Part shown: piece after piece, positions 4,291 to 63,087 of the stretch
Position numbering within the stretch: the stretch's first letter is position 1
Layout of the letters: every line of letters begins with the position of its first letter
Source: an uncultured delta proteobacterium
Lineage (GTDB): Bacteria > Myxococcota_A > Polyangia > Fen-1088
NCBI GenBank assembly: GCA_963824555.1
Contig: CAWGPW010000016.1
Coordinates: 611,109-675,108, forward strand
Length of the DNA stretch: 64,000 nt
Direction of reading: 5' to 3'
Position numbers and translations under genes: made by a program
The notes under the pieces: model-generated
Told to the model about the DNA's origin: nothing
The model's input: the letters and a program-made list of their open reading frames with translations, nothing else
The model's database searches: none

Positions 4291-5683
4291 CTACCACTTG
4301 CCGGACTTGCGCGCCTCGGCCTTGGGCATGCCCGCCAGCTTGGCGAGGTTCTCCAAGAATCTCGGATTCGGGCATGACGTAATCCGTGAGCTTGCCGCCA
4401 AGATACGCGTCGTAGCCCGCCAGATCCATCAGGCCGTGGCCGCTGTAGTTGAAGAGAATCACTTTCTTCTCGCCGCTCTCGCGGCAGGCGACGGCCTCGT
4501 CGATGGTCGCCGCGATGGCGTGGCTGGTCTCCGGCGCGCAGATCGTGCCCTCGGTCTTGGCCCAGATCATGGCCGACTCGTAACACTTGAGCTGGCCGTA
4601 GGCCTTGGGCTCGAACAGTCCTTCGACGATGCCCTGGCACACGAGAGGCGCCATACCATGGTAGCGAAGGCCGCCAGCGTGGATGGGCTTGGGCACGAAG
4701 GTGTGGCCAAGCGAGTGCATGGGCAGAAGCGGAGTCATGCCGGCGACATCGCCATGGTCGTACACGAAATTGCCCTTGGTCATCTTGGGGCAAGCCTGGG
4801 GTTCGACGGGGACGATCTTGATCTTCGCGCCGTGGATCTTGTCGTAGGCGAAGGGGAAGGCGAGCCCGGCGAAGTTGCTGCCGCCGCCCGCGCAGGCGAT
4901 CACCACATCGGGCAGACGTTCGCCGGCCTTCTTGAGCTGCTCCTTGGCTTCGAGCCCGATGATGGTCTGGTGAAGCATCACGTGGTTGAGCACGCTGCCC
5001 AAGGCATAACGGGTTTGCCCCGACCTGTCGGTCACCGCCGCCTCGATGGCTTCGCTGATGGCGATGCCAAGGCTCCCCGGCGTGTCGGGCATCTGGGCCA
5101 AGATATTGCGGCCGGCCTGGGTTTCACGCGACGGGCTGGCCACGCAGTTGGCGCCCCACACCTGCATCATCGACTTGCGGAAGGGCTTCTGGTCGAAGCT
5201 GATGCGCACCATGAAGACCTTGCACTCGAGACCGATGAGGTTGCAGGAAAAGGCGAGGGCGCTGCCCCACTGGCCCGCGCCGGTCTCGGTGGTCAGGCGT
5301 TTGATACCGAATTGTTTGTTGTACCAAGCCTGCGGCACCGCCGTGTTCGGCTTGTGACTGCCGGCCGGGCTCACGCTCTCGTCCTTGTAGTAAATCTTGG
5401 CCGGCGTGTTCAGGTAGCGTTCCAGGAAGACGGCGCGGCGGAGGGGCGACGGACGCCACCTGTAGAGGATGTCCAGGACCTCCGGCGGAATGTCGATCCA
5501 GCGCTCGCTGCTGACTTCCTGCTCGATGAGGTTCATCGGAAAGACCGGGGCCAGCATCTCGGGCTTGATCGGGCCGCCGTCGGGGCCAAGCGGTGGCAGC
5601 ATGGGCGTCGGCAAGTCCGCGGCGAGGTTGTACCACTTGCGAGGGATCTCGTTCTCGGAGAGCTGAATCTTCACGTTGTCCAT
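4291..5683 (-). CDS. TrpB-like PLP-dependent enzyme (tryptophan synthase beta, TrpB2 type), with apparent 3' frameshift
   Basis: MDNVKIQLSENEIPRKWYNL.. start at 5683. Reads like stand-alone TrpB2: ..KDESVSPAGSHKPNTAV.., GAGQWGSALAF, ACAGGGSNFAG. The last ~50 codons of the tracked ORF (to 4190) use A/T-ending codons and overlap the Omp85 gene. A shifted frame gives ENLAKLAGMPKAEARKSGKW* ending at 4291. Confidence 0.8.
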
Positions 5684-5886
5684 GTTGTCCGTCCTTTGGC
5701 AGATAAAGACACCCCATCGGAGACCGCGGAGCGTCGTGGCCGAATGGCATAGTAGAGGACTGGGCCGTCCGAGTTCAACCACGGATCATCGCCCATAGTC
5801 CCGCACTAGCGCAGAAGGTCGTGGCCATGGTGAGCCGTCTACGTCCACGACCCCCCGTCGTCAGCGACGCCTCTGTCGGCGCGGGA

Positions 5887-46419: not shown

Positions 46420-46604
46420 TCAACGACTATACGACAACCTCGGTACCGAAAACCTCGCCTATAGCCACGATACCACGTCCCCAAGCGAGCATGCACAGGG
46501 CCAGGGCGGAGACAATATCCCAGCGCGTCTCGACAATAGACCCGCTGCGGCTCCGGCGGCCTACCCCCGAAAGCAAAGCCAGCGACGCGTGGCTCTGCAG
46601 GGAG

Positions 46605-49499
46605 ATGAAGGATACAATGCCTACTCGACTCGGGATGGACACAGCACAGTCAAAGAACCGGCTTCTTCTCGTCGACGGAGACCCCAAGAGTCTTCGCGTT
46701 CTCGATGTCAGCCTCAAAAAAGCCGGCTTCGATGTCACGACCGCCACCAGCGCTCGCGAAGCCCTCGCTGTGCTCGAAGCCGGCCAGCCCGATCTGATCA
46801 TCTCCGACACCGATCTCGACGAGATGGACGGCTTCGAGCTGTGCAGCCAAATCAAGGCCCGTTCACAATGGGCAAAGATTCCCTTCCTCTTTGTCTCGGG
46901 TCGCAAATCCATCGAAGACAAGATCCGCGGGCTCGAGCTTGGCGTCGACGACTACCTGACCAAGCCCATCTACATCAAGGAAATCGGTATTCGCGTTCGC
47001 ACCGCCCTGCAGCGAGCCGAACGCGAGCGCATGGAATCGCGCCGCGAAGGTCGCACGCGATTCGCCGGCGACCTCTCCGATGTCGGCGTCGTCGATCTGG
47101 TGCAGACCATCGAGCTCAATCGCAAATCGGGCATCATCCACATCGTCAATCGCGACACCCGCCGCGGGTCCATCTTCTTTCGCGACGGCAAGGTCATCGA
47201 CGCCGAGGTCGGCCGCCTTTCGGGTGCGAACGCCATCTACCGTCTCTTCTCGTGGTCCGAGGGGCAATTCGCCGTCGAGTTCAAACAAATCCGCCGCCAC
47301 GATGTCATCGACACCCCCATGGCACCCTTGTTGATGGAAGGCATGCGCCGGCTCGACGAAAGCACGCGACTGCTCGATAAGCTCCCCGCCACCAGCAGCG
47401 TTCTGGAGGTCGACTGCCGCGCGCTCGCCGAAGAGCTGGCGGAGTTGCCCGACGAGGTGAACTCTGTCCTGCGCTTGTGCGACGGTACGCGAACCCTGCA
47501 GGAAGTCGTCGAGGACAGCGACCATCCTGATCTCGAGGCGCTCACCTTCATCAACAAGCTGTCTACCAGCCAGATCATCTTCGCCCGCGAGGCGCCCGAC
47601 CGCGGGGGGGAATCCGAGCCCGGTGATCGCCTGGCACACTGGTTGTCCGAGGGTGGGGCCGAAGACGGCGCGGCCGCCGAAGATGCCAGCGCTTCTTCCG
47701 AGTTCGCGGCTGCCGAGATCCCCACTCCCGACGGCGAGGCCATCCCCGAGAGGACACCGGTGCCCGCTGGCGCGGCCGTTCGGACGACGAGGGAATTCGC
47801 GGCGACTCCGCCGGCCATCGAGCCATCGTCCTTGGAGCGCGAAGCTCCTTCTCGCCCGGAGGGCCCTGCGACGATCTCGAACGAGTCGTTGCTGGCCCCC
47901 TCTCCCGTTCCATCCAATGTCTCGCCGACGGTTCCCTCGCCGATACTTTCCGCGGAAGAATCCCTTGAGGCCGTGCTCCCGCCCCAGGCCGACCCCGCCA
48001 GTGTCGGCAGCAACGAATTCTCTCCCCCATCCGACACCCTCAAGGGCCTTCCCGTCGACACCCTGTTTGGCGACCCAGAAGCAAGGAAGGATGTCCCCTC
48101 TCTTGTGGTCCCGAGCCCCCCGAAGCCGGATTCCAATGTCGTCCGCAACCCCATGGAGACTCGATCGACCAAGCCCCTCGGTCTTGCCGAACGTCTACTC
48201 AGCGAAGACTCTGCGGTGCGCGCCTCGGCCATGCACGAAGCGATTGGCGGCGGGGGCGGCAAGGTCGAGAGCTCGCAGTCAACCGACCGCAATACGCGCG
48301 AGTATGGCAACCCTGCCGCCGAAGCGGCCGCGGCTTTGGTGCAAGAGGTGATCTCCTCGGCCCACGAAGCCAAACGCGATAGTCCTGCACCGGCCGAGCC
48401 GGGACGACCGACGAAGGAGGTCGACTGGGGCGCATGGCCCACCGGTCTCCCCGCCGGGCCGAACCGAAAGGAAGAGGCGATCGACAATCTCCGCCAGAGC
48501 GCTGGCGCGCCTGGCCCCGCCGAGGCGCCAAATGCCGGCGTGCCGAGCTCGGGGACGGAAGCTGTCCACGCTCCTTCGCTCGAACAGGCGGTCCCCGAGG
48601 AAGCCCGTGCGCCAGAAGTAGAGGTGCCGCCGTCCTTGCCCGCGCCCGATCCCTCCATCTCGCTGATAGAGGACAGCGCCGGCCGCAAGGAGCCTCCACC
48701 GGCTTCGTCTGCTGGTGATGGACGGGGCTCCACCGCTGACCATCCCGCGGCTCCCCCATCTCCGACGGCCCAGTCGGTCCCTGTGCCGCCCCGCCCAACG
48801 CCTCGCCCTAAAACCGAGGCCGGCGGCAGGACCGCACGCAAGACGGTTCCGTCAAGGCAGATCTGGCTCATGGCCGGGGGTGCCTTCGCTCTCGGCGTGA
48901 TCGGGTACTTGGCGCTGGGAAGAAGAGCCTCCTCACCTCCCGAGGTGCCGTCCGCCGTGGTCTCGTCTCCCTCAGAGCAGGCACGGGTACCCCAAACGGC
49001 ACCCGCGCCAGAGGAGCCGCCCAAGGTGGCGAACGAGCGGAAGTCGCCAGCGGCACCCAAGGTGGCGGACGCACACAAGGCGCCGGCGGCGGCCAAGCCG
49101 GACGTGCCCCCGGCTCGACTTGGGGTCGGCACACCGTCTTCCGCAGCGGCGGACTTGCGGCGCAAGTGTTTGGAGGTCGACGCCGAGGGCAAGGGCAAGG
49201 CCAGGGCGGTCTCGATAGCGTGCCGGCCGGCGTTGGACGCCGATCCCAAGAATGTGGAGGTCATGGTGATCCTCGCCCGCGCGGAGATCGATCGCGGCCG
49301 TCTCGGGGAGGCGCGCTCGCTGGCCAAGAAAGTGTTGGCCACCGACCCGCAGCGCCTCGACGCCTATGTCTACCTCGGCACCGCCGAGCAGGAAGCCGGC
49401 CGCCTCGACGAAGCGCGCGCCGCCTACCAGAAGTATCTCGACTTGGCACCCGAGGGCCCATTCGCCCGCGAGCTGCGTGCCATCTTGAGTAATCTCTAG
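46605..49499 (+). CDS. Response-regulator receiver plus DUF4388/PATAN domain protein with long Pro-rich region, one TM and C-terminal TPR
   Basis: REC: LLLVDGD..DLIISDTDLDEMDG..LTKP. DUF4388-like: GDLSDVGVVDLVQTIELNRKSGIIHI..IFFRDGKVIDAEV..AIYRLFSWSEGQFAVEF. About 550 aa of P/A/S/E-rich sequence, TM IWLMAGGAFALGVIGYLALG, and TPR-like end. The start is ambiguous (ATG at 46605, 46617 or 46635). Confidence 0.75.
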   Translation: MKDTMPTRLGMDTAQSKNRLLLVDGDPKSLRVLDVSLKKAGFDVTTATSAREALAVLEAGQPDLIISDTDLDEMDGFELCSQIKARSQWAKIPFLFVSGRKSIEDKIRGLELGVDDYLTKPIYIKEIGIRVRTALQRAERERMESRREGRTRFAGDLSDVGVVDLVQTIELNRKSGIIHIVNRDTRRGSIFFRDGKVIDAEVGRLSGANAIYRLFSWSEGQFAVEFKQIRRHDVIDTPMAPLLMEGMRRLDESTRLLDKLPATSSVLEVDCRALAEELAELPDEVNSVLRLCDGTRTLQEVVEDSDHPDLEALTFINKLSTSQIIFAREAPDRGGESEPGDRLAHWLSEGGAEDGAAAEDASASSEFAAAEIPTPDGEAIPERTPVPAGAAVRTTREFAATPPAIEPSSLEREAPSRPEGPATISNESLLAPSPVPSNVSPTVPSPILSAEESLEAVLPPQADPASVGSNEFSPPSDTLKGLPVDTLFGDPEARKDVPSLVVPSPPKPDSNVVRNPMETRSTKPLGLAERLLSEDSAVRASAMHEAIGGGGGKVESSQSTDRNTREYGNPAAEAAAALVQEVISSAHEAKRDSPAPAEPGRPTKEVDWGAWPTGLPAGPNRKEEAIDNLRQSAGAPGPAEAPNAGVPSSGTEAVHAPSLEQAVPEEARAPEVEVPPSLPAPDPSISLIEDSAGRKEPPPASSAGDGRGSTADHPAAPPSPTAQSVPVPPRPTPRPKTEAGGRTARKTVPSRQIWLMAGGAFALGVIGYLALGRRASSPPEVPSAVVSSPSEQARVPQTAPAPEEPPKVANERKSPAAPKVADAHKAPAAAKPDVPPARLGVGTPSSAAADLRRKCLEVDAEGKGKARAVSIACRPALDADPKNVEVMVILARAEIDRGRLGEARSLAKKVLATDPQRLDAYVYLGTAEQEAGRLDEARAAYQKYLDLAPEGPFARELRAILSNL

Positions 49500-50539: not shown

Positions 50540-51411
50540 GCGAGGACTCGAAAGCGGCGCGAGCTCCGCTGGCCACGGCGCGCGAGCTGCTCGGGCGTCA
50601 TGGTCTTTTGCCCAAGAAATCCCTGGGCCAGAATTTTCTCGTCGATCCGCGGGTACAGGAACGCATCGTGGCCGCGGCCCAGATCCAGACCTCGGATGTG
50701 GTGGTCGAGATCGGCGCGGGGCTGGGGGCGCTCACCGCTCGCCTCGCCGACATCGCGGGTAAGGTCATCGCCATCGACCGAGACGCCCGGCTTGTGGAGG
50801 TGCTGCGCAGCGAGCTCGCGGACCGGCCCAACCTCGAGATCGTTCTCGGTGATGCCCTGGAATTCGAGCTGGGCGAAGCCGCGTGCAAAGCAGGTCGGCC
50901 GCTGGTCGTGGTGGGCAACCTGCCCTACGTCGTCACCTCGCCGGTCCTCTTCGCAACCCTCGAGGCGGCGGCCGCTGGCCGGGTCGTGGATCGCGCCATC
51001 TTCATGGTGCAGAAGGAATTCGCGCAGCGAATGTTGGCGCCGCCGGGCAGCCGCACCTATGGCCGGCTCTCGGTGATGGTCCAGCAGGCGGCGGCGGCCG
51101 AGATCCTGTTTCACGTGGGCGCGGGCGCGTTCTTGCCACCGCCGGCCGTGACCTCGACGGTGCTGCGCTTGCGGCCACGCGCGCAGCCGCTGGCGCCCGT
51201 TCGCGACGCCGACCTTTTCGCGCGCGTGGTGCGCGAGGCGTTCGGAGCCCGACGCAAGATGCTCCGCCGTGCCCTCGAACCGGGCTTCGGTGGCGCCCGA
51301 GCAGCGGCGGCTCTGGAGGCGGCCGGCATCGCGGGAACGCGTCGGGCCGAGGAGCTGGCGGTGGCGGACTTCGCCCGTTTGGCGAATGCTTTGGCCGAGG
51401 AACATGCCTGA
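50536..51411 (+). CDS. rsmA: 16S rRNA (adenine1518/1519-N6)-dimethyltransferase
   Basis: The ATG overlaps the tsaD stop (ATGA). KSLGQNFL, VVEIGAGLGALT, VVGNLPY. Confidence 0.92.
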
Positions 51412-52222
51412 GCTTCCCGAAGTCGAGACCGTGGTCCGCACCTTGCGGCCGCAGATCGTGGGCCAAACCATCCGTTCGCTGTGGACCAGCGGTCAATCGC
51501 TGCGCATGGCACGGAAACTGGACAAGAGCAGACTGCGAGAAGCAAGCGTCGGCGCGACCATCCGCGCCGTTCGTCGACGGGGAAAGTACATCCTCATCGA
51601 TCTCACGGACAGTGGCGTGCTCGTGCACCTGGGGATGACCGGACGGTTGACCGTCGCCGAAGAGAGTGCCGAACGGGTCAAGCACACGCACGTGGTGTGG
51701 ACTCTTCCGCAACGCCGCGAACTGCGCTTCGTGGATCCGCGACGCTTCGGCTGGGTACGGGCGGCGGCGAATCTCGACCGACTTCCGGAAATTCGCGCGC
51801 TCGGGCTCGATCCGCTCGCCGAGCTCGACGGCGAAAAGCTTCGCGCCATGCTCGCGACCTCGCGCGCGCCCATCAAGGCGTTCCTGCTCGACCAGCACCG
51901 CCTGGCCGGCCTGGGCAACATCTACGTTTGCGAAGCACTCTTTCGCGCGCGCATTCATCCGCGCACCCAGGCTCGTCGCGCACGTGAGAAGGCCGAGGTC
52001 CTGGTGCGTGCCATTCGCGAAACCCTGGAAATCGGCATCGCCAATTGCGGTACCTCGTTTCGCGACTTCGTGGACGCGACGGGTAAGCCGGGAAGAAACA
52101 TCGAGGCGCTGCTCGTGTACGGACGGGAAGACGAAGCGTGTACCGTCTGCGCCGGTCGCGTGCGCCGGAGGGTGGATGGCGGGCGGTCAACCTTCTACTG
52201 CGCCAATTGTCAGGCACGCTAG
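51404..52222 (+). CDS. mutM: Formamidopyrimidine-DNA glycosylase
   Basis: MPELPEVETV N-terminus, H2TH region, and C-terminal zinc finger CTVCAGRV..FYCANCQ. Confidence 0.93.
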   Translation: MPELPEVETVVRTLRPQIVGQTIRSLWTSGQSLRMARKLDKSRLREASVGATIRAVRRRGKYILIDLTDSGVLVHLGMTGRLTVAEESAERVKHTHVVWTLPQRRELRFVDPRRFGWVRAAANLDRLPEIRALGLDPLAELDGEKLRAMLATSRAPIKAFLLDQHRLAGLGNIYVCEALFRARIHPRTQARRAREKAEVLVRAIRETLEIGIANCGTSFRDFVDATGKPGRNIEALLVYGREDEACTVCAGRVRRRVDGGRSTFYCANCQAR

Positions 52223-53145
52223 AACAAGCAGGAATCCAGCGAGCCGGTCGTCGTGTCGCCTTGCAGGCGATAGGAGTAGGTGGCCAGGGTGTCGATGCCC
52301 CAGCAGTCGGTGCCAAGGGTCGTGGATTGATTGGGAAGGTTGGGCGTGAGATCCGCCGTCAAATCCGCGCGGCCCGCGCCCGAGCCGAGCCATTGCGAGG
52401 TCATCTTCGCCGTGATCTGCACGCCGGTATCGGTCGTGCCCTGCCAGTCGAAGGTCATGCGGCCCGAACCGTCCTGATTCTGATAGTACTCATAGTGTCC
52501 TGCTCGCGTCGTAGCCGTGGACAGATTCACGATGTCCATGATTACGCTGATCGGATAGGCAGCATTGTCGTAGGTGACGTCGAGGTGGTCGAGATCGCGC
52601 AGCCCCGGATCGTCGTCGACCGGATAGAGGGCAGTGCGGGCATCGTTGACGAGGAGGTGGATGTCGCCCGTGCCCGTGCGTGCGCTCCCGCCAGAGGTGT
52701 AGTCGCCCGTGAGGAAATTGACCCAATCGCCCTGGCCGACGGGCCGCACTTGGACCCAATAGTCCATATGAAGTTGCGTCGAGGAAACCGTCGAGCGCTG
52801 CATGACCACGCGGATCTCCCAGCCCGGGTGTTTGTCGTCGGCAAACGGTCCCCAGGTGCGCTGGTCGCCTTGTCGGGAAGTCGGCGTCGTGCCGCGGACG
52901 ACCTCGATGAGGCCGACCAGATCCGCGACCATGGTGTTGAAGGTAGTAATCGCGCTTCGGGTCGCGAGGTAATACTCGGCCGAATCGGCGCGTGTGATCG
53001 ACAATTGCATCTTGGCATCGATGTCGCTTTGCTCGGGCAGGGCGAGCTGGAAATCGAGATCCTCGTTGGAATAGTTGCCGCAGGCACCCGCGCCAATCGC
53101 AGCGAGCAGCACCAGCGAGCATGGGCCGAGACGTTCAGAAATCAT
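52219..53145 (-). CDS. Lipoprotein A (paralog of 56075..57070), last gene of the ECF/caspase operon
   Basis: MISERLGPCSLVLLAAIGAGAC lipobox. Shares blocks with lipoprotein B: WGPF/WGPW, SQWLGSGAGRADL versus SRWLWSGAGRSDV, and C-terminal ..CW..SC(L/V)F. Confidence 0.7.
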   Translation of the reverse strand: MISERLGPCSLVLLAAIGAGACGNYSNEDLDFQLALPEQSDIDAKMQLSITRADSAEYYLATRSAITTFNTMVADLVGLIEVVRGTTPTSRQGDQRTWGPFADDKHPGWEIRVVMQRSTVSSTQLHMDYWVQVRPVGQGDWVNFLTGDYTSGGSARTGTGDIHLLVNDARTALYPVDDDPGLRDLDHLDVTYDNAAYPISVIMDIVNLSTATTRAGHYEYYQNQDGSGRMTFDWQGTTDTGVQITAKMTSQWLGSGAGRADLTADLTPNLPNQSTTLGTDCWGIDTLATYSYRLQGDTTTGSLDSCLF

Positions 53146-54736
53146 AGGCAACCCCCGCGGAAAGCTCCCAGTAGCCGAGGGAGCGGTCTTCGTCGACGTT
53201 GTAAAGCAAGTAATGGACACGGCCGCGTGTCAGCAAGGCAAAGCTTCGCGACAAGCGATAGCGCAAACCTCCGACCAGCCCCGGCGTGAAGGTGGCGAAA
53301 AACTGGTCGGGTATGGTGGGATCGTCGAATTTTCGGCTCATGAGCACGACGGCCAGGCGCAGGCCCGCGAAGACGGCCACATCGCCGAAGTGAAAACGCC
53401 ACTCGGCTGCCAGCGTGGTTCCCGCCGTGACCTCGCTGAAACGGAAGGGCAGGAGCGAGCCGTAGCGATCGACCTGCCCGTTCGTGCCGCCGCTGGCGAG
53501 ATCGAGCCCCCAGATGAAGCCATGGCGGAAAAAATCGCGCACTTCGAATTCCACGCCCAACATGCCAGTGGTCGGAAACAGGCTGTCACGCGTGGGTCCG
53601 TCGAAAAACGACTGCATCATGCCGCCCAGGCTGAGGCTCAAGTGCGCGCCCTCGTCGCGAATCGCGCCCTTCACCGGGTCGTCGGAAAAGGGCGCGTCCC
53701 GCAGCCGGGATTCGTCGAGGGTGGTGAGCTGACCCGAGGCGATCTGGATCTCGCCGATGCGCAGGCGATCGGCGAGCCGGCGACGGACGTGGTAGTGGCC
53801 AGCGGGCAGGGCGATCTGTCGATCACCGTCGGCGGGCTTCTGAATCTCGGCCGCGATGAAGCCGTTGCCGTCGACGATGTAGTAGATCCCGGCGGGCGCT
53901 GGACCGGGGACGTAGATGCCCTCGCGTCGGCTGGCGAAATCGGTCAGCACCAGATCGGCGTTGCCCTGGAAGTCGTAGCTGAAGGTCGGGTGCTGGGCGC
54001 CGGCGGCGCTTTCGGCCGTGTCCGCCACCGTGCGTGCGTAGGCGTAGGCGTAGGCCTCGGACAAGGTCACGCGCCGGTCGCGCGAGCGATCGGCGTCGCC
54101 GCGCAAACCGCTGACCAGGTAGTGGGAAAAATAGCTGCCGCCGATTTCGTCCGATTCTTGCGCATCCTCGTCGGCGCTGGACGAGGACAGCAGCACCAGG
54201 CCGCGGGTTTCTTCCGAGCCCGCCGCCTCAATCTGGAACGCGGGTGCGTGGCGCGCGCCCTTGGTGCGGGTCACCATGCCCGAATGGCACGAGTCGAACA
54301 CGCCGATGCGGATGTCGGCCGGCGCGGCGGCCAAGCGCGCCTTGAGCTCGTCGAGACGAATGCGCGAGTCGCCCAGGCGCAGCTCGCCGTCCTTGGCGTG
54401 GCCCGAGTAGTAGAGGATGAAGAGCGCCCGCTCGCCGCGTTGCTTGGCCAAGGCGATGCGCGCGTCCATGTCGCCGAGGGCACGCCAGAGCTCACCCGCC
54501 GACTGGTCGAGGATCAACGTGACGTCGCCCGGTGCCACCCCGCCCAGTTCCGTGAGCACGGCGTACACCTTGCGTGCGTCCTCGGCGGCAAAGCGCAAAG
54601 GGCGCGTGTCGCTTCCGCCTTCGTCGTTGCCCGCGATGATCGCAAATCGGTGCTGACCAGCGGCCTGCGTCGGCGCCGAGCAGAGGAGCAGCGCCAACAC
54701 CGGCCCGGCCCGCGCGATGGTCCGCAGGGTGCTCAT
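53135..54736 (-). CDS. Secreted peptidase C14 (caspase-fold) protein fused to a C-terminal beta-barrel-like domain
   Basis: Signal peptide MSTLRTIARAGPVLALLLCSAPTQAAG. Caspase dyad contexts LFILYYSGHAKDG and GVFDSCHSG. The C-terminal ~170 aa show alternating beta-strand patterns and end ..WELSAGVAYDF (aromatic OMP-type terminus). Confidence 0.75.
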   Translation of the reverse strand: MSTLRTIARAGPVLALLLCSAPTQAAGQHRFAIIAGNDEGGSDTRPLRFAAEDARKVYAVLTELGGVAPGDVTLILDQSAGELWRALGDMDARIALAKQRGERALFILYYSGHAKDGELRLGDSRIRLDELKARLAAAPADIRIGVFDSCHSGMVTRTKGARHAPAFQIEAAGSEETRGLVLLSSSSADEDAQESDEIGGSYFSHYLVSGLRGDADRSRDRRVTLSEAYAYAYARTVADTAESAAGAQHPTFSYDFQGNADLVLTDFASRREGIYVPGPAPAGIYYIVDGNGFIAAEIQKPADGDRQIALPAGHYHVRRRLADRLRIGEIQIASGQLTTLDESRLRDAPFSDDPVKGAIRDEGAHLSLSLGGMMQSFFDGPTRDSLFPTTGMLGVEFEVRDFFRHGFIWGLDLASGGTNGQVDRYGSLLPFRFSEVTAGTTLAAEWRFHFGDVAVFAGLRLAVVLMSRKFDDPTIPDQFFATFTPGLVGGLRYRLSRSFALLTRGRVHYLLYNVDEDRSLGYWELSAGVAYDF

Positions 54737-55527
54737 GGCTTTCGAAACAGCCAGGAGAAGACGTCTTGTCCGCCGGCAAAGGCGGGATTCGGCAGGGCGG
54801 AGAGATCGCCCTTGGCCGCCTGGTGCGCGGATCTCACGGCCTGCTCGGCGGCCGCGAGATCGAAGGGCGTTCGCGCCAGGAAGAGGAAAACCCGTTCGCG
54901 GCCCGTTCCCGTGAATTCCAGACTATCTGGCAGGTAGACGGTTTCGTGCGTGGCGGACACCGGGAGAGCAGGACCTTGTTCGGGATAGAGCGGGGTCACC
55001 TCGCCGCTGTCGTCGACGGAGACGGCCGCCAGGTAGCGCGCGTCCACGGTCTTGTAGCCGAGACGAACGCGGTCGCCCGGCTCCAGCACCTCTTGCGATC
55101 CGGGCGGAGCGATGCGCTGCGCGGAGTTTTCTGCCGAGGCGATGCGCGCCGTGGCCTCCACGCTGCTGCCCTTGCTACGGTTTTGTTGATTGTTCCCGGA
55201 TGAGGACACGCGCACGAGGAACAAGGCCACCGCCGCCGCGGCCAGCACGCCGGAAAGCCCAAAGGCCCACGCCCGCCGCGGACGCTCTCGCGGCACACGC
55301 TGGGCGCGCTCCACGCCCCCGGCGAAGCGCTCGAAGGGGATCTCACGTTCGAACGTGCGTTGCTCTTCGACCAGCACGCGCATCTTGGCCCGGCAGGCGG
55401 GACAGCTCGCCAGATGGCAATCCACCTCGGCGCAGGCTTCGGGGGCGAGCTCACCCGCGCGGTAGCAGCGCAGGGCCAGCTCGGCCAGGTGATTCGACGG
55501 CGTTTCGCGATTGTCGACCAGGGTCAT
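54733..55527 (-). CDS. Anti-sigma factor (zf-HC2), single TM, periplasmic DUF4384-like domain
   Basis: CHLASCPAC (H-x3-C-x2-C), TM WAFGLSGVLAAAAVALFLV, periplasmic LEPGDRVRLGYKT..YLAAVSVDDSGEVTPLYP. 4-nt overlaps on both sides. Confidence 0.8.
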   Translation of the reverse strand: MTLVDNRETPSNHLAELALRCYRAGELAPEACAEVDCHLASCPACRAKMRVLVEEQRTFEREIPFERFAGGVERAQRVPRERPRRAWAFGLSGVLAAAAVALFLVRVSSSGNNQQNRSKGSSVEATARIASAENSAQRIAPPGSQEVLEPGDRVRLGYKTVDARYLAAVSVDDSGEVTPLYPEQGPALPVSATHETVYLPDSLEFTGTGRERVFLFLARTPFDLAAAEQAVRSAHQAAKGDLSALPNPAFAGGQDVFSWLFRKP

Positions 55528-56072
55528 GGCGAAAACTCCCTGCCGCAGACGGCGGCGAACTCGCCCAGGCGTTTGCGCACCGTCGGCACCGAGCGGCCGA
55601 GGAGCGCGGCGACCTCCTCCAGGGTCATTTCGTCGACGTGGTAGTGGATGGCCACGGCCTGGGTCTCTTGATCGACGAGGGACAGCATCTTGGCCACCAG
55701 CTCGCGCATCTCGAAAACCTGCGGGCCGGGGTCGCTGGTGTTGCGCGCGCGGGTCTCGCGCTCGAAACGCTCGTGCCAGGCGGCGCGGTCGGCGCGCAGG
55801 ATGTTGAGACAGTGGTGGGTGGCGATCTTGATAAGCCAGGTCAGTGGCGAGGATTCCGAGCGAAAACCCGCGTAGTGGGTGAGGACCTTGGCGAACACGT
55901 CTTGCATGGCATCCTCGGCCTTGCTGCGATCCTTGAGGATGTAGGCACAGCGCCCGAAAACGCTGGCCCCGTACCGCGTGTAAAGCTCGCGCAGCTGCTC
56001 GCGCGCATCCGAGGCCGCCAGGCCCTTTTCGCCCGGGATGATCTGAAACGTCGGGGTCTGGCGGCCGCTCAT
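55524..56072 (-). CDS. ECF-type RNA polymerase sigma factor
   Basis: MSGRQTPTF.. start at 56072. Region 2: DAMQDVFAKVLTH..SSPLTWLIKIATHHCLN. Region 4: MTLEEVAALLGRSVPTVRKRL. Confidence 0.85.
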   Translation of the reverse strand: MSGRQTPTFQIIPGEKGLAASDAREQLRELYTRYGASVFGRCAYILKDRSKAEDAMQDVFAKVLTHYAGFRSESSPLTWLIKIATHHCLNILRADRAAWHERFERETRARNTSDPGPQVFEMRELVAKMLSLVDQETQAVAIHYHVDEMTLEEVAALLGRSVPTVRKRLGEFAAVCGREFSP

Positions 56073-56074
56073 GA

Positions 56075-57070
56075 TCAAAGGTTCGAGAATTGCGCGTCCT
56101 GGAACACGCAGCTCGAGACGCTGCCGTAATTGTCCGTCGCGCTGGTCGAAATGGGAACCGACTTGTAGACGCTGAGGTAATTCGTGTCCCAGCACTCGCT
56201 CAGGGTGTAGGTCAGCGCGCTGTCCGTGGTGGTGACGCTGACGTCCGAGCGTCCCGCGCCGCTCCACAGCCACCGGCTGCGCACCTTGCCGAGGCCGCCG
56301 GCCGAGGTCGCGTTCGCGGGCACATCGTAGAGGAAGTCCATGCTGCCATCCGCGCCAGGATTCTGGACGAAGGCATAGTCTACATCGACCAGCTTGCCAG
56401 GTTGATTGTCGTCCTTGACCTGGCGGAACTTGGCCGCGATGTTGACGACGGCGCCGGGGTCCATGTGGTCATAGGTGTAGTTGGCCGTGCCCACGTTGCT
56501 GTCGGGTTGGGGCAACATGGCGCGCGCGTCCCAATCGAGCGTGAAGCTTCCCGCGCCAAAGCCCTCCATTTCGTTGCCCTGCGCATCGAGCCCGGGTGTG
56601 TGCGTTCCCGAGAGCACGGTGACATACGCCGCGCTCTGGTCTTGCTTGTCGCGCCCTTCGAACTTGTACGCGTACTGGTGGGGCGCGATACGCGTGATCG
56701 TGACTCTCCATTCGATGGGATCGAGAGGACTTTGCCATGGACCCCACACCGCCGAATCCAGGGTGACGCTCGTCGCTGGGTAGTCGGTCACCAGCTTGAC
56801 CAATGTGCCCACCGCGAGGGCGCCGGCGTTGACCGTCACGGTGACGGCGCGGGTCGTGATGTACCAGTCGGAGAGTTGCCCCATGAGGGCGTAGTTGCTT
56901 CCCTCGACGGTCAAGGCCTCGTTGTCCGAGCCCGGAACGGCCATGGCCACGGTGCTAGCGCGCGGCACCCCGGTGGCGAGCTCGGAGCCCGGCTCATCCT
57001 TGGGCTGGCATGCGAATAGCCCGATGGTCAGGGCAGAGCACAAGGCAGTGTAGGCAACGAAACGTGTCAT
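56075..57070 (-). CDS. Lipoprotein B (paralog of 52219..53145), first gene of the ECF/caspase operon
   Basis: MTRFVAYTALCSALTIGLFAC lipobox. 331 aa. The stop is 2 nt from the sigma start. Tail ..SSCVFQDAQFSNL. Confidence 0.7.
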   Translation of the reverse strand: MTRFVAYTALCSALTIGLFACQPKDEPGSELATGVPRASTVAMAVPGSDNEALTVEGSNYALMGQLSDWYITTRAVTVTVNAGALAVGTLVKLVTDYPATSVTLDSAVWGPWQSPLDPIEWRVTITRIAPHQYAYKFEGRDKQDQSAAYVTVLSGTHTPGLDAQGNEMEGFGAGSFTLDWDARAMLPQPDSNVGTANYTYDHMDPGAVVNIAAKFRQVKDDNQPGKLVDVDYAFVQNPGADGSMDFLYDVPANATSAGGLGKVRSRWLWSGAGRSDVSVTTTDSALTYTLSECWDTNYLSVYKSVPISTSATDNYGSVSSCVFQDAQFSNL

Positions 57071-57142
57071 GGTGGTCTCTCCTTCCGCTAGAGACAGACA
57101 CGCCGGCGCGCGGAAATAGAAAGAAGAAAGCCTGGCGGGACG

Positions 57143-57727
57143 CTACAGATTGGCGAAGGTCGCATCCGACAGGGCGCTCAGCGGGACATGGGCGACAAGC
57201 TCGAGCAAGTCGGCACGCGGAACGTGGCCGTTGCCCATGGCTTCGACGTGAAACCCCGAGCGAAGCTGGATGTGCAGGTCGCAGGGGGAATCGGCACGTT
57301 CGGAGGCACAGGTGAAGAAGCCATTGGCCTCGGATGCCGGCAGCGCAAGCGAGGCTTGTGGGTAGCTCGCCGAGCCCTCGACCCAGCGCTCGAACGCGCC
57401 CGGCTCCCGGCCCATGGGCGCGATGGTGATTTCCACCCGCCTCTCGCCGGAGAGGTAGGCGCGACGCACGTAGCCCGGACCGTGCCGGATGGGCTCCGCG
57501 GCCACGTACGGCGGCACGGCGTCGGGGAATATCTCGACGTGCGTCCGGGACACGTCAGTCGCCGGCTTCGGCCAAGGGATGTGCGCCATGACGCTCTCGA
57601 CCCGAGCTGGCGTCGGCTTCCGAATCGGCGAGGGAGTGGCCGAAACGCCAGCCTTGCATGCGGGCAGCGTCAGGGCGAGCAGGACAGTCCATCGCGGCGC
57701 GAGCGCGCCGCTCCTCGACCGTTTCAC
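57143..57727 (-). CDS. Lipoprotein C (hypothetical)
   Basis: MKRSRSGALAPRWTVLLALTLPAC lipobox. 194 aa. Tail ..SDATFANL resembles the lipoprotein B tail. Its start overlaps the pirin stop by 4 nt. Confidence 0.6.
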   Translation of the reverse strand: MKRSRSGALAPRWTVLLALTLPACKAGVSATPSPIRKPTPARVESVMAHIPWPKPATDVSRTHVEIFPDAVPPYVAAEPIRHGPGYVRRAYLSGERRVEITIAPMGREPGAFERWVEGSASYPQASLALPASEANGFFTCASERADSPCDLHIQLRSGFHVEAMGNGHVPRADLLELVAHVPLSALSDATFANL

Positions 57728-60873: not shown

Positions 60874-63087
60874 TCACCTTGGGTTCGCGGTCACCGCTGT
60901 GGTCGTCGACGCTGGCGTGACCTTGCGCGAGGCGGTCACCTTCTTGTTTTCCGCGTACGACGCGTAGGCATCGGCTTCCACGGGCAGAAGCACGGTGAAG
61001 GTCGACCCGGAGCCCGGTTGCGAGCGCACCTCGATGGTGCCGCCGTGGTTCTCGATGATACGCTGGCTGATGGGCAGGCCAAGGCCAGTGCCCTTTTCCT
61101 TGGTCGTGAAGAAGGGAATGAACAGGTTGCGCAGATCGGCGGGCGGGATGCCGATGCCGTCGTCGCGGAAACGGATTTCGAGAAACGCCGCGGATGCGCC
61201 TCGCCGGGTCGAACGGCGCAAGCTGGTGGACACCTGCAGGCGCCCGCCCTGGGCCATGGCATCGAAAGCATTGATGGCCAGGTTCAAGAACACCTGGCGA
61301 AGCTGCTGCGCATCGGCACGAACCGGCGGCAGGCCCTCGAGCAGGTTCATCACGATTTCCACGCGCGAACCGGTGCGCTCCTTCTCGATCAGATTGACGG
61401 TCTTGCGAACCACGTCGTTGAGATCGAGCGGGCTCTGATCGCCGCGGTAGGGCCGCGCGTAATCGAGGAATTGCGAGACGATCTTGTTCAGCCGGTCGAC
61501 TTCCTCGACGATGATGTCAAGGAACTCGCGGGTGCTCGCATCCGGCTTTTGTCCATCTACCGGCTGCAGATACTGGGCCGCGCCCTTGATCGAGCCGAGC
61601 GGATTGCGGATCTCATGGGCGAGCCCCGCCGCCATCTGGCCGAGCGCCGCAAGACGGTCGCGCTCTTTCATGCGCTCGTAGATCTGCGAGTTTTGCAAGG
61701 TCACGCCGATGGACGCGGCCACGCCGCGGAAGAGCTCGATTTCCTCGGAGGAATAGGCCTCGCGCAAGCGCTCGTCGCGCAGGACGAGCATGCCAAGCAG
61801 CTGCTCTTCGCCGAGGATGGCCAGCACCACCGAGCCATTGAGCTGTTCCAGCGCGCGCACGATGAGTAGCAGGGCCTCGCGCTCCTCGCCTTGTTTGTTG
61901 CGCAAGGCCAGCAGCTCGCGTTCCAGCCCCTCGACGGAAACCACCCCGGCTCGGCGCAGGCGCTCGAGGAACCCACGATGGGCGACGGCATCGATGCGAC
62001 CCTCCGGCCGCGGCCCCACGTGCCCGATGAGGTCGTAGGCGGAACCGTCGGGATCGACGATGTACATCGAGGCATGGGTCACGCGGCGCGAATCTTCGAG
62101 GGCGGAGAGCACGCGCGGCACCAGATCGCGCACGTCGATGACGTTCATGAGATCGGCGCGCAAGCTCTCGATGCGGCGAAAGAGCTCGTATTTTTCCTGG
62201 AACATCCAGCGATTCACCACGCGTTCGAGCAGAGAGCGCAGCGGCTCGAACACGATGATGATGGCCGTGGAGGCAATGAGGGCATTGAGGAAGAGCAGTC
62301 CGATTTCGTTCAGATCGACCAGTTTGATGAGCAGCAGGCCGTAGATGACGGTGGAGATGCTGGCCAACGCCGCCAACACGACCATGCGCCCGAGCAGCTC
62401 GTTGAGGTCGAGCAGGCGGTAACGGACGAGGGTCTGCGACAGGAAAAACAGATAGATGGTGATGAAGATGTTCCCCACCGAGGGCGCCCAGGGAACCAGG
62501 TCCAGGAGCGCCGCGGTCACGGTGGCCAAGCCTCCCACCAGCAGGTAAAGCAGGCGGATCTTTTCGACCCGCGACGGCGTGCGCCGGTAGCGCCGGTACA
62601 GGTAGTAGACGGACAGGTAGAGCCCGAGGAAGACGTAGGAGAGGAGGCCGAGCAGGAACCACTTGGAGGTGTGAACCGGCGTGGCCAGGAAGAGACTGGA
62701 AAGCAAGGCCAGGTAGAGCAGGGCGGCGCCGACCAGGGTGATGCGCGACATGGGCGGCGGCCCGGCTTCGTCGCCGAGAAAAGCGCGGAAGAACCGCTGC
62801 GCGGTGGCGGGCAGCGATACCGCGGCCAGCATGGCCCCCCAACGCAGGAGTGAATTCGAATCCTGCGATGAGGAGAGGAACATGAGGAGCCTCTGCACCG
62901 CCACGTTGAACGCGAAGGTGGCGAACAGGGCGTGCACGCTGCGCCTGGGGTCGCGCAGGAGCACCGCCCCGCCGACGGCAAGCCCGACGATGGCGGCGAC
63001 CAGGGCCGAAAGCGTCTGAGTGTTCAAGACCCTCCCATTGTAGCGCCTTTGCCCACCATGCCTCCGTCTGTTAGCATATTGCCCCAA
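60874..63087 (-). CDS. Sensor histidine kinase (polytopic N-terminal sensor, GAF-like, HisKA, HATPase)
   Basis: About 8 hydrophobic segments, GAF-like middle, H-box LAHEIRNPLGSIKG, N/G boxes (NLAINAFDAM, DDGIGI, GTGLGLPIS). The start is uncertain (TTG at 63087 or 63027). Confidence 0.85.
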   Translation of the reverse strand: MGQYANRRRHGGQRRYNGRVLNTQTLSALVAAIVGLAVGGAVLLRDPRRSVHALFATFAFNVAVQRLLMFLSSSQDSNSLLRWGAMLAAVSLPATAQRFFRAFLGDEAGPPPMSRITLVGAALLYLALLSSLFLATPVHTSKWFLLGLLSYVFLGLYLSVYYLYRRYRRTPSRVEKIRLLYLLVGGLATVTAALLDLVPWAPSVGNIFITIYLFFLSQTLVRYRLLDLNELLGRMVVLAALASISTVIYGLLLIKLVDLNEIGLLFLNALIASTAIIIVFEPLRSLLERVVNRWMFQEKYELFRRIESLRADLMNVIDVRDLVPRVLSALEDSRRVTHASMYIVDPDGSAYDLIGHVGPRPEGRIDAVAHRGFLERLRRAGVVSVEGLERELLALRNKQGEEREALLLIVRALEQLNGSVVLAILGEEQLLGMLVLRDERLREAYSSEEIELFRGVAASIGVTLQNSQIYERMKERDRLAALGQMAAGLAHEIRNPLGSIKGAAQYLQPVDGQKPDASTREFLDIIVEEVDRLNKIVSQFLDYARPYRGDQSPLDLNDVVRKTVNLIEKERTGSRVEIVMNLLEGLPPVRADAQQLRQVFLNLAINAFDAMAQGGRLQVSTSLRRSTRRGASAAFLEIRFRDDGIGIPPADLRNLFIPFFTTKEKGTGLGLPISQRIIENHGGTIEVRSQPGSGSTFTVLLPVEADAYASYAENKKVTASRKVTPASTTTAVTANPR

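Follow-up and report, generated by a model that had tools for sequence, protein, structure and literature searches.

A conserved five-gene cassette of Myxococcota combines an ECF sigma factor and its anti-sigma factor with a caspase-fold protease on a predicted outer-membrane barrel

Three described systems bring a caspase-like protein together with a sigma factor of the extracytoplasmic function (ECF) type: a class of operons catalogued in 2012, the CRISPR-associated craspase, and the DdvS/DdvA pair of Myxococcus xanthus. Here, we compared these systems with a cassette of five minus-strand genes at positions 52219–57070 of a 64-kb stretch of DNA (the window) from contig CAWGPW010000016.1 of an uncultured delta proteobacterium. 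Open reading frame (ORF) reading places a lipoprotein gene (lipoB) first and a second lipoprotein gene (lipoA) last, and between them lie genes for an ECF sigma factor, an anti-sigma factor, and a caspase-fold protease fused to a predicted outer-membrane barrel. The original prediction for this DNA had stated that no characterised system with this architecture was known, which remains correct as regards characterisation, but the three precedents narrow the claim.

Four of the five metacaspases of M. xanthus DK1622 are encoded in predicted operons with ECF factors of the sigma-70 family, and the same association was found in Anaeromyxobacter, Haliangium, Sorangium, Ralstonia, and Fibrobacter (Asplund-Samuelsson et al., 2012, PLoS One, PMC3501461). 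Table S2 of that survey includes MXAN_4949 (ECF), 4950 (single-pass membrane protein), 4951 (metacaspase), and 4952 (lipoprotein); MXAN_6681, 6682, and 6683 with a lipoprotein (MXAN_6681–6684); MXAN_7214–7216; and MXAN_7454–7456, and the Haliangium operon YP_003267509–12 belongs to the same class (PMC3501461). These operons share with the window their occurrence in Myxococcota and the order of ECF sigma factor, single-pass membrane protein, and Peptidase_C14 protein (510–577 aa), and a lipoprotein follows the metacaspase in two of the four M. xanthus operons. Judged by gene order and protein sizes, the window cassette is a member or close relative of this class. The class was only catalogued from operon predictions, with no description of the anti-sigma factor and its DUF4384 domain, of the barrel, of a paralogous lipoprotein encoded upstream, of a promoter motif, or of any mechanism. 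In the literature, we found no functional study of the M. xanthus locus tags of these operons and no paper linking DUF4384 anti-sigma factors to a separate caspase.

Fusions of DUF4384 to orthocaspases have been reported (PMC7475262). In craspase, a type III-E CRISPR system, Cas7-11/Csx29 (TPR-CHAT) was shown experimentally to cleave Csx30, an anti-sigma-like protein that binds the ECF sigma factor RpoE/CASP-sigma, inhibits it, and has DUF4384 as its C-terminal domain in some members (PMC10028731; bioRxiv 10.1101/2022.08.17.504292). In the DdvS/DdvA pair of M. xanthus, the ECF sigma factor DdvS is partnered by DdvA, a single-pass anti-sigma factor of the zinc type. The periplasmic TPR-CHAT region of DdvA was proposed to make the site-1 cut in the anti-sigma factor itself, before RseP acts; once truncated, the anti-sigma factor is degraded by M. 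xanthus RseP (PMC6061681, PMC11506125). CHAT proteins also occur in the gene neighbourhood of group ECF54. In Escherichia coli, the sigma-E/RseA/RseB/DegS/RseP pathway relies on an inner-membrane anti-sigma factor that receives a periplasmic site-1 cut and then a site-2 cut, and the pathway is autoregulated and linked to the state of the outer membrane. Its site-1 protease DegS, a serine protease with a PDZ domain, is anchored in the inner membrane and responds to the C-termini that unfolded outer-membrane proteins expose.

We consider the window cassette best explained as one autoregulated signalling module that would span the cell envelope. When the ORFs were read again, all earlier coordinates, junctions, and quoted peptide motifs proved correct. 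lipoB (57070..56075; 331 aa) starts with ATG and is preceded by the ribosome-binding site GGAAGGAGAG. The sigma gene (56072..55524; 182 aa) starts 2 nt past the lipoB TGA, and the anti-sigma gene (55527..54733; 264 aa) and the caspase gene (54736..53135; 533 aa) each overlap the preceding gene by 4 nt through an ATGA. lipoA (53145..52219; 308 aa) overlaps the caspase gene by 11 nt (ATGATTTCTGA). For the sigma factor and lipoA, the longest ORFs (GTG at 56273 and GTG at 53220) reach too far upstream; we use the shorter ones from ATG, as orthologs share these starts.

Conservation of the gene order across Myxococcota had been named as a check, and the order proved conserved. One genome per species was scanned, the best 80 of 161 relatives were kept, and all five window proteins were searched against the related loci. 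In 74 of 74 loci of sufficient length, from both Polyangia and Myxococcia, the five genes occurred in the same order on the same strand; 11 further related loci were incomplete, and all of these were cut by contig ends. Carriers among the kept relatives comprised metagenome-assembled genomes of Polyangia, "Myxococcales," and Hyalangium, together with cultured Myxococcus, Corallococcus, Archangium, Pyxidicoccus, and Vitiosangium, and the closest locus among the best 80 of 161 was CAWCMR010000025.1, with a caspase identity of 95%; the window itself most likely stems from a Polyangia-type myxobacterial metagenome-assembled genome. The flanks changed with distance: the window and its close relatives carry pirin and proC upstream and a convergent fpg downstream, and more distant loci carry a protein kinase upstream and PilZ downstream. 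The 4-nt ATGA overlap between the sigma and anti-sigma genes was found in almost every locus. The anti-sigma/caspase junction lay mostly between −4 and +60 nt, the caspase/lipoA junction at −11, −4, or about +10 nt, and the lipoB/sigma gap ranged from 0 to about 190 nt. Compared with their Myxococcaceae counterparts, the window proteins showed an identity of approximately 60% for the sigma factor (57–65% in individual loci), 57% for the caspase, 40% for the anti-sigma factor, 36% for lipoB, and 30% for lipoA. The five-gene arrangement is strongly non-random, far beyond chance. Within the 64-kb window, a search found no paralogous second cassette.

Gaps of 320–840 nt occur within the cassette in a few loci, namely L049 (about 5017–5857), L046 (5659–5989), and L048 (7509–7831). 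They sit between the anti-sigma and caspase genes or between the caspase gene and lipoA, and could represent insertions or mis-called starts.

Alignment of the 160 nt upstream of lipoB across loci yielded the consensus tTTTCtgTTTt-N10-C-N-GTGTC(c/t)aT, which corresponds to TTTC-N17-GTGTC with invariant spacing. In the window, the motif TTTCTATTTCCGCGCGCCGGCGTGTC (57097..57122, minus strand) is a candidate ECF-type promoter composed of a T-rich −35-like half (TTTC..TTT), a fixed spacer, and a −10-like half (GTGTC) that begins 31 nt before the lipoB ATG. Of 73 loci, 65 carry the motif with identical spacing in the 200 nt upstream of lipoB, at 14–92 nt ahead of the start codon, and 7 other matches were found in 964 kb of related loci on both strands. 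With at most one mismatch, TTTCNNTTN11CNGTGTC had one match in the 64-kb window against 0.17 expected. The motif has 12–13 fixed bases, and both its geometry and the downstream GTC are in keeping with ECF promoters. No second copy was found between lipoB and the sigma gene, including loci with gaps of up to 190 nt, no sigma-70-like promoter was found inside the operon, and terminator-like sites in the operon were not above chance. The motif is plausibly the cognate, autoregulated promoter, with lipoB as the first gene of the transcript. The conserved upstream motif, the lack of an internal promoter, and the lack of a terminator excess together suggest a single autoregulated transcript for the five genes, in agreement with the one-operon reading in the original prediction.

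Loci L032–L066 (Myxococcus, Corallococcus, and Archangium) have 5′ leaders of 45–70 nt between the motif and the lipoB ribosome-binding site. These leaders hold a GC-rich hairpin whose sequence varies (GGCCC...GGGCC or CCGGC...GCCGG) and whose position is kept. As special structures, the hairpins were rejected, as their folding energies were no better than those of shuffled sequences. The leader in the window is short and lacks a GC-rich hairpin.

Every domain call made from the DNA alone was upheld by Pfam, NCBIfam, orthologs, and fold matches, although DUF4384 stays below its cut-off in the window protein and draws its support from the family. The sigma factor matched Sigma70_r2 (E-value 1.3e-12) and Sigma70_r4_2 (1.5e-5) in Pfam and TIGR02937 (sigma70-ECF) in NCBIfam at 71.4 bits against a cut-off of 42.9, which identifies it, at the level of sequence, as an ECF (group IV) factor of the sigma-70 family with sigma-2 and sigma-4 regions only. 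The main text of Casas-Pastor et al. (2021), consulted for the ECF group, makes no mention of caspases.

The anti-sigma factor matched zf-HC2 at 22.2 bits, exactly at the Pfam cut-off, and DUF4384 (PF14326) over positions 2–81 of the 81-position model with an E-value of 3.4e-4 (21.1 bits against a cut-off of 27). Among 77 orthologs from the related loci, DUF4384 was detected in 51 (E < 0.01; best 4.7e-6) and zf-HC2 in 35; ortholog annotations read "zf-HC2 domain-containing," "DUF4384 domain-containing," or "anti-sigma factor RsiW," and several carry a precomputed PF14326 hit. The zinc motif HLASCPAC (aa 38–45; 55393..55416) supplies H38-x3-C42-x2-C45 in the ortholog alignment. Since H13, H38, C42, and C45 are each conserved in at least 90% of the 77 sequences, the full motif of zinc-type anti-sigma factors, H/C-x(23–26)-H-x3-C-x2-C (ZAS class I), is present. 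On this alignment, the protein is a zinc-type single-pass anti-sigma factor that is predicted to bind and inhibit the sigma factor. Its transmembrane helix, read from the protein sequence, spans approximately aa 86–106 (55210..55272) and is preceded by the Arg-rich stretch RVPRERPRRAW, which under the positive-inside rule places the C-terminal ~160 residues in the periplasm. This part contains the probable DUF4384 domain (aa 148–221; 54865..55086), assigned from the Pfam and ortholog matches.

Two features of the periplasmic part are conserved beyond the domain itself. Lys119-Gly120 (55168..55173) lies in the juxtamembrane linker (NRSKG) about 12 residues after the membrane helix, and in the 77 orthologs K119 is conserved to 97% and G120 to 99%, in a protein that holds 5 Lys residues. 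The pair usually appears as N-R-x-K-G, with R-x-K-G in at least 51 of 78 orthologs, and is a hypothetical scissile bond for a site-1 protease. In addition, all 77 orthologs end in Lys-Pro (K263-P264; 54733–54741), usually as F/L-x-K-P, and this invariant end of the periplasmic domain suggests a recognition tag.

The caspase-barrel protein (53135..54736), delineated from Pfam, an AlphaFold2 model, and homologs, begins with a type I signal peptide (aa 1–26, with TQA before and AG after the cleavage site), and a lipobox is not conserved (1 of 81 orthologs). It has more than 1100 homologs; among the 120 listed, almost every one is full-length (about 520–560 aa), the exceptions being a few fragments and one 675-aa variant. 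The catalytic domain (aa 28–253; 53978..54655) matched Peptidase_C14 over aa 30–253 at 44.8 bits against a cut-off of 21.4. The catalytic contexts YYSGHA (aa 109–114) and FDSCHSG (aa 147–153) had been described as intact, and indeed His113 (YYSGH; 54398–54400) and Cys150 (DSC; 54287–54289) are invariant in 60 homologs of 58–89% identity. In the AlphaFold2 model, with a predicted local distance difference test (pLDDT) score of 80.4, a signal-peptide helix is followed by an alpha/beta core (aa 28–252), a beta-sandwich, and eight long strands. Foldseek matched the catalytic domain to procaspase-1, Yca1, MALT1, and legumain (E-values 5e-7 to about 1e-4; target TM-score about 0.55–0.6), and a profile search matched Candida glabrata metacaspase-1 at 8.5e-4 with both catalytic motifs aligned. 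According to the model, the domain has a caspase-hemoglobinase fold, as had been foreseen. The acidic residues D148 (before Cys150), D189, E190, and D191 are conserved in the homolog alignment, and we take them to be the positions that form the S1 pocket for a basic P1 residue in metacaspases. Their conservation suggests that the protease cleaves after Lys or Arg.

C-terminal to the catalytic domain, the model contains a beta-sandwich (aa 263–348; 53693..53950; about nine strands, pLDDT about 83–91) that had no Pfam match. The idea that this sandwich is a second DUF4384 pairing with the anti-sigma domain was rejected, with an hhalign probability of 0.7%. The C-terminal part (aa 365–533; 53138..53644) is modelled as an eight-stranded barrel of the OmpA/OmpX/Ail type, with eight long strands by DSSP (aa 365–532), and Foldseek matched it to OmpA, NspA, Ail, and OmpX (E-values 1e-8 to 5e-7; target TM-score about 0.7). 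The Pfam model OMP_b-brl scored 21.8 bits (2.4e-4), below its cut-off of 28.7. The window barrel ends in Tyr-Asp-Phe, and most orthologs close with Y-x-F or Y-x-L; about 19 orthologs end in Y-x-P (YQP, YEP, or YAP), which is unusual for the C-terminal signal of an outer-membrane protein. In eight-stranded barrels such as OmpA and OmpX, both termini face the periplasm. With the same topology, the protease domain would hang into the periplasm and not be exposed on the cell surface, and the caspase and DUF4384 domains would share a compartment. The earlier label of an outer-membrane caspase therefore needs a qualifier for the protease itself, which is expected in the periplasm.

The caspase-barrel protein is poor in Lys. 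Of its 8 Lys residues, 4 are conserved to at least 98%, namely K115 (98%), which adjoins the catalytic His, and the invariant K159, K300, and K356, and its only invariant Lys-Gly pairs are K159-G160 and K356-G357. Lys159-Gly160 (54257..54262) lies in the loop after Cys150 (TRTKGARHAPAF), where R157, K159, G160, and R162 are invariant in the 60 homologs, TR[TS]KGAR is present in 70 of 70 locus orthologs in which the post-Cys loop could be located, and pLDDT falls below 50 (aa 152–177); it is a proposed autoprocessing site, with cleavage hypothetical. Lys356-Gly357 (53666..53671) lies in the tether DDPVKG between sandwich and barrel, where D353, P354, K356, and G357 are invariant and pLDDT dips over aa 351–362, and may likewise be a site of self-release.

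The two lipoproteins complete the cassette. Lipoprotein B (56075..57070) carries the lipobox LFAC with Cys21, and lipoprotein A (52219..53145) the lipobox GAGAC; a lipobox-like motif was found in 65 of 72 lipoB and 69 of 78 lipoA orthologs, and both proteins probably sit in the outer membrane. The paralogy of A and B noted earlier is confirmed but modest (25% identity over 271 aa, E-value 7e-12). Cys21, Cys293, and Cys321 of lipoB are invariant in the ortholog alignment, and the C-terminal Cys pair (Cys293/Cys321 in lipoB) is common to both proteins. The AlphaFold2 model of lipoB (pLDDT 80; predicted TM-score 0.76) shows a disordered tether (aa 22–63), a long helix (aa 68–96), and 13 antiparallel strands. 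Neither lipoprotein matched a family in Pfam, NCBIfam, or PADLOC, and a profile search against PDB sequences gave no match; Foldseek comparison of the lipoB fold with the PDB gave nothing below 1e-3, with porins at a TM-score of 0.2 as top matches. Sampled distant members likewise had no Pfam domain and no annotation. On the basis of the model, the two lipoproteins form a new fold or family, which comprises 1316 clusters at 50% identity (E-value 1e-3 or better).

Several details of this family were observed in passing. The lipoB tether (aa 22–62; 56885–57007; pLDDT below 50) carries a conserved F..GVPR..TV.M, and the highly conserved mature N-terminus of lipoA, CGNYSNEDLDF, begins a tether that is predicted to be disordered and carries CGNYSNEDLDF..ALPE (about 53030–53080). 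These tether peptides may serve for docking or cleavage. Two family members of double length, P0401 (634 aa) and P0505 (624 aa), matched the profile twice, which indicates that the paralogs also occur fused in tandem elsewhere. A role like that of RseB or LolA is not supported, as no similarity was found by PDB fold or sequence profile.

These features can be combined into the following mechanism. The sigma factor would be held at the inner membrane by the zinc-type single-pass anti-sigma factor, whose periplasmic part is a DUF4384 domain. A signal related to the envelope would switch on the protease, which would then process itself in the loop after Cys150 (TRTK/GAR, the slash marking the cut) and detach from the barrel at DDPVK/G. 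The freed enzyme would cut the juxtamembrane linker of the anti-sigma factor (NRxK/G) as a dedicated site-1 protease, after which an RseP-type site-2 protease and then cytoplasmic proteases would free the sigma factor. The sigma factor would finally transcribe the operon from TTTC-N17-GTGTC upstream of lipoB, giving positive feedback. The central step, in which the caspase is the dedicated site-1 protease of the anti-sigma factor encoded in its operon, seems to us a serious candidate with a little less than an even chance of being right. The whole trans-envelope relay, in which an outer-membrane metacaspase zymogen self-processes, self-releases, and cuts the DUF4384 anti-sigma factor, each time after Lys-Gly and with positive feedback, is put forward more tentatively. 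We infer the periplasmic orientation, the cleavages and the sequence of steps, as well as the signal and what the lipoproteins do.

Several observations favour the site-1 protease reading. All invariant Lys-Gly pairs of the caspase and the anti-sigma factor lie in flexible linkers of proteins that are poor in Lys (8 and 5 residues), and the anti-sigma linker resembles the post-Cys loop of the protease, which is the usual position of autoprocessing in caspases. The strict five-gene synteny, the overlapping junctions, the motif ahead of lipoB, the intact dyad, the compartment that the protease is expected to share with DUF4384, and the acidic S1-pocket residues also count in its favour. By analogy, DUF4384 is repeatedly tied to caspase-fold proteases (orthocaspase fusions and Csx30), and a caspase-like protease acting on an anti-sigma factor would have precedents in craspase, where cleavage was shown, and in DdvA, where it was proposed. 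Moreover, the four paralogous sigma/transmembrane protein/metacaspase operons of M. xanthus look like cognate signalling sets and not like one generic effector.

Other points weigh against it. The cleavages, the interaction, and the transcript are predictions from sequence and models, the window scores of DUF4384 and of the caspase barrel (OMP_b-brl) lie below the cut-offs of their Pfam hidden Markov models, and the T-rich −35-like half of the motif is without the AAC that is usual in ECF promoters. Since output genes are often part of ECF operons, a shared transcript cannot distinguish a sensor from an effector. A site-1 protease within the regulon of its own sigma factor would lead to runaway feedback unless tightly gated, and a protease tethered to the outer membrane and a target about 12 residues from the inner membrane demand a postulated extra release step, which a cut at K356-G357 would supply. 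The K-G motif is very short, the Arg at −2 is missing in roughly one quarter of the anti-sigma orthologs, and K119-G120 may be no more than the start of the first periplasmic strand.

The fact that ECF operons include effectors in many cases leads to the first alternative, in which the sigma/anti-sigma pair would sense by other means: the zinc motif could register redox state, DUF4384 could bind a ligand, or a DegS/Prc-type protease could be encoded at another locus. As the output, the pair would then switch on the caspase-barrel protein and the lipoproteins, an envelope protease module for remodelling, predation, developmental lysis, or defence. We regard this alternative as possible but doubtful. 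It and the site-1 protease reading are the two interpretations offered in the original prediction, which is upheld in part, as regards architecture and a single operon. Both within the window and across the ±6 kb flanks of relatives, the motif occurs only before the operon, which makes the operon genes the sole targets of the sigma factor visible so far, and the caspase, sandwich, barrel, and lipoproteins are well conserved as folded proteins. A link of M. xanthus metacaspases to developmental autolysis was also suggested in the 2012 survey (PMC3501461). However, an output role leaves unexplained why a domain tied to caspases is the sensor of this particular anti-sigma factor, why its linker holds an invariant K-G that mirrors the caspase loop, and why each of the four paralogous sigma/anti-sigma pairs of M. 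xanthus has its own caspase. Nor did PADLOC match a defence system; identity as such a system was rejected, the only match being a weak generic one to caspases (7e-4).

The conserved peptides on the disordered lipoprotein tethers speak for a second alternative, which we consider unlikely. Here, DUF4384 would bind the caspase or a lipoprotein without being cut, as an inhibitor or partner, and the anti-sigma factor would report the state of an outer-membrane complex, for example failed barrel assembly or mislocalised lipoproteins, in the manner of RseB/RseA or RcsF/IgaA; the true substrates of the caspase would be the lipoprotein tethers or other envelope proteins. The combination of an outer-membrane protein, lipoproteins of outer-membrane type, and an inner-membrane sensor recalls Rcs and sigma-E surveillance, and the DUF4384 of orthocaspases is fused in cis and hence not simply a substrate. 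Nevertheless, binding by DUF4384 is an assumption, the lipoproteins have no detectable similarity to RseB, LolA, or RcsF by PDB fold or profile, and a route to inactivation of the anti-sigma factor would still be required. That the five genes are merely neighbours without shared function, packed together incidentally, is very improbable: lipoB lies up to about 190 nt from the sigma gene in some lineages and no experiment links the five genes, but their order is kept in 74 of 74 loci across two classes amid unrelated flanks, the overlapping stop and start codons are conserved, and the single conserved promoter-like motif lies upstream of lipoB.

The genes neighbouring the window operon are housekeeping genes. 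Downstream, fpg (Fapy_DNA_glyco, H2TH, and zinc finger) is convergent and ends 4 nt inside the stop region of lipoA (52219–52222), which leaves no space for a terminator between the two genes; its listed ORF starts at 51269, but judging by the catalytic N-terminus MPELPEVE the true start is at 51404. On the other side, a 194-aa ORF at 57143–57727 (minus strand) lies immediately upstream of the operon and is without a Pfam or PADLOC match. Its 188-aa counterpart occurs in the closest relatives (L004) and is absent from distant loci, and we therefore placed this ORF outside the conserved cassette. Farther away, a 1002-aa response-regulator protein with DUF4388 (PatA_N-like) and TPR domains is encoded at 46491–49499 (plus strand) and a 737-aa GAF histidine kinase at 60874–63087 (minus strand); both are typical myxobacterial signalling proteins with no evident operon link.

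To our knowledge, metacaspases and orthocaspases are widespread in bacteria and almost none has a known substrate or role, and the inactivation route of most ECF anti-sigma factors is not known. The cassette pairs both questions in culturable and genetically tractable myxobacteria (Corallococcus, Archangium, and Myxococcus), and the site-1 protease model makes defined predictions, namely that the anti-sigma linker is cut at its Lys-Gly, that the protease cleaves itself at two sites, and that transcription uses the promoter motif. If true, no earlier envelope signalling pathway would have been driven in trans by a protease of the caspase fold, and would provide the first defined physiological substrate and signalling role for bacterial C14 caspases. 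It would also extend the logic of craspase and DdvA from phage defence to a general envelope module, and the relay would apply to the multiple paralogous cassettes of M. xanthus as well. The lipoproteins define a large unannotated family (>1300 clusters at 50% identity) for which the PDB holds no structural neighbour.

Set against the known systems, the cassette would resemble craspase in that an ECF sigma factor is controlled through a linker cut that a caspase-fold protease makes in an anti-sigma-like protein. As a CRISPR-associated system, craspase is RNA-guided and works in the cytoplasm, with a TPR-CHAT protease and no membrane parts, whereas the window cassette is predicted to be located in the envelope, has no cas genes in its operon, and carries a C14 domain on an outer-membrane barrel; no CHAT, TPR, or Cas match was found in the five operon proteins by Pfam or PADLOC. 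In DdvA, the anti-sigma factor itself carries a TPR-CHAT region of roughly 900 residues, and within a dimer this region would act in trans. In contrast, the window encodes a separate C14 protease with a predicted outer-membrane anchor and an anti-sigma factor of 264 aa whose periplasmic part (about 160 aa) is DUF4384. DdvA controls a CBASS (cyclic-oligonucleotide-based anti-phage signalling system)/CRISPR island, and no genes of such an island flank the window operon.

The proposed working of the cassette, with a periplasmic site-1 cut near the membrane followed by a site-2 cut, can be likened to the sigma-E pathway. Unlike DegS, however, the candidate site-1 protease is a cysteine protease with a predicted outer-membrane anchor, and its gene belongs to the operon. 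Pfam and NCBIfam identified neither a serine protease nor a PDZ protein among the operon products, the C14 protein being the only protease, and for this reason the cassette is not a member of the sigma-E/RseA type even though it may work similarly; an RseB homolog was not detectable among the operon proteins either. The protease domain itself resembles orthocaspases and metacaspases such as Microcystis MaOC1 and yeast Yca1, with which it shares the His-Cys dyad in (Y)SGH and DSC(H/R)SG contexts, the caspase-hemoglobinase fold, acidic residues at S1-pocket positions, and a conserved basic post-Cys loop. The characterised members are soluble and cytoplasmic, and we found no description of an orthocaspase or metacaspase with a signal peptide and a C-terminal OmpA-like barrel, or with a defined bacterial signalling substrate. 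The cassette is thus set apart from all systems compared by a C14 protease on its own polypeptide with a predicted outer-membrane anchor, by a small DUF4384 domain as the putative sensor, and by two lipoproteins of a new family that are always present.

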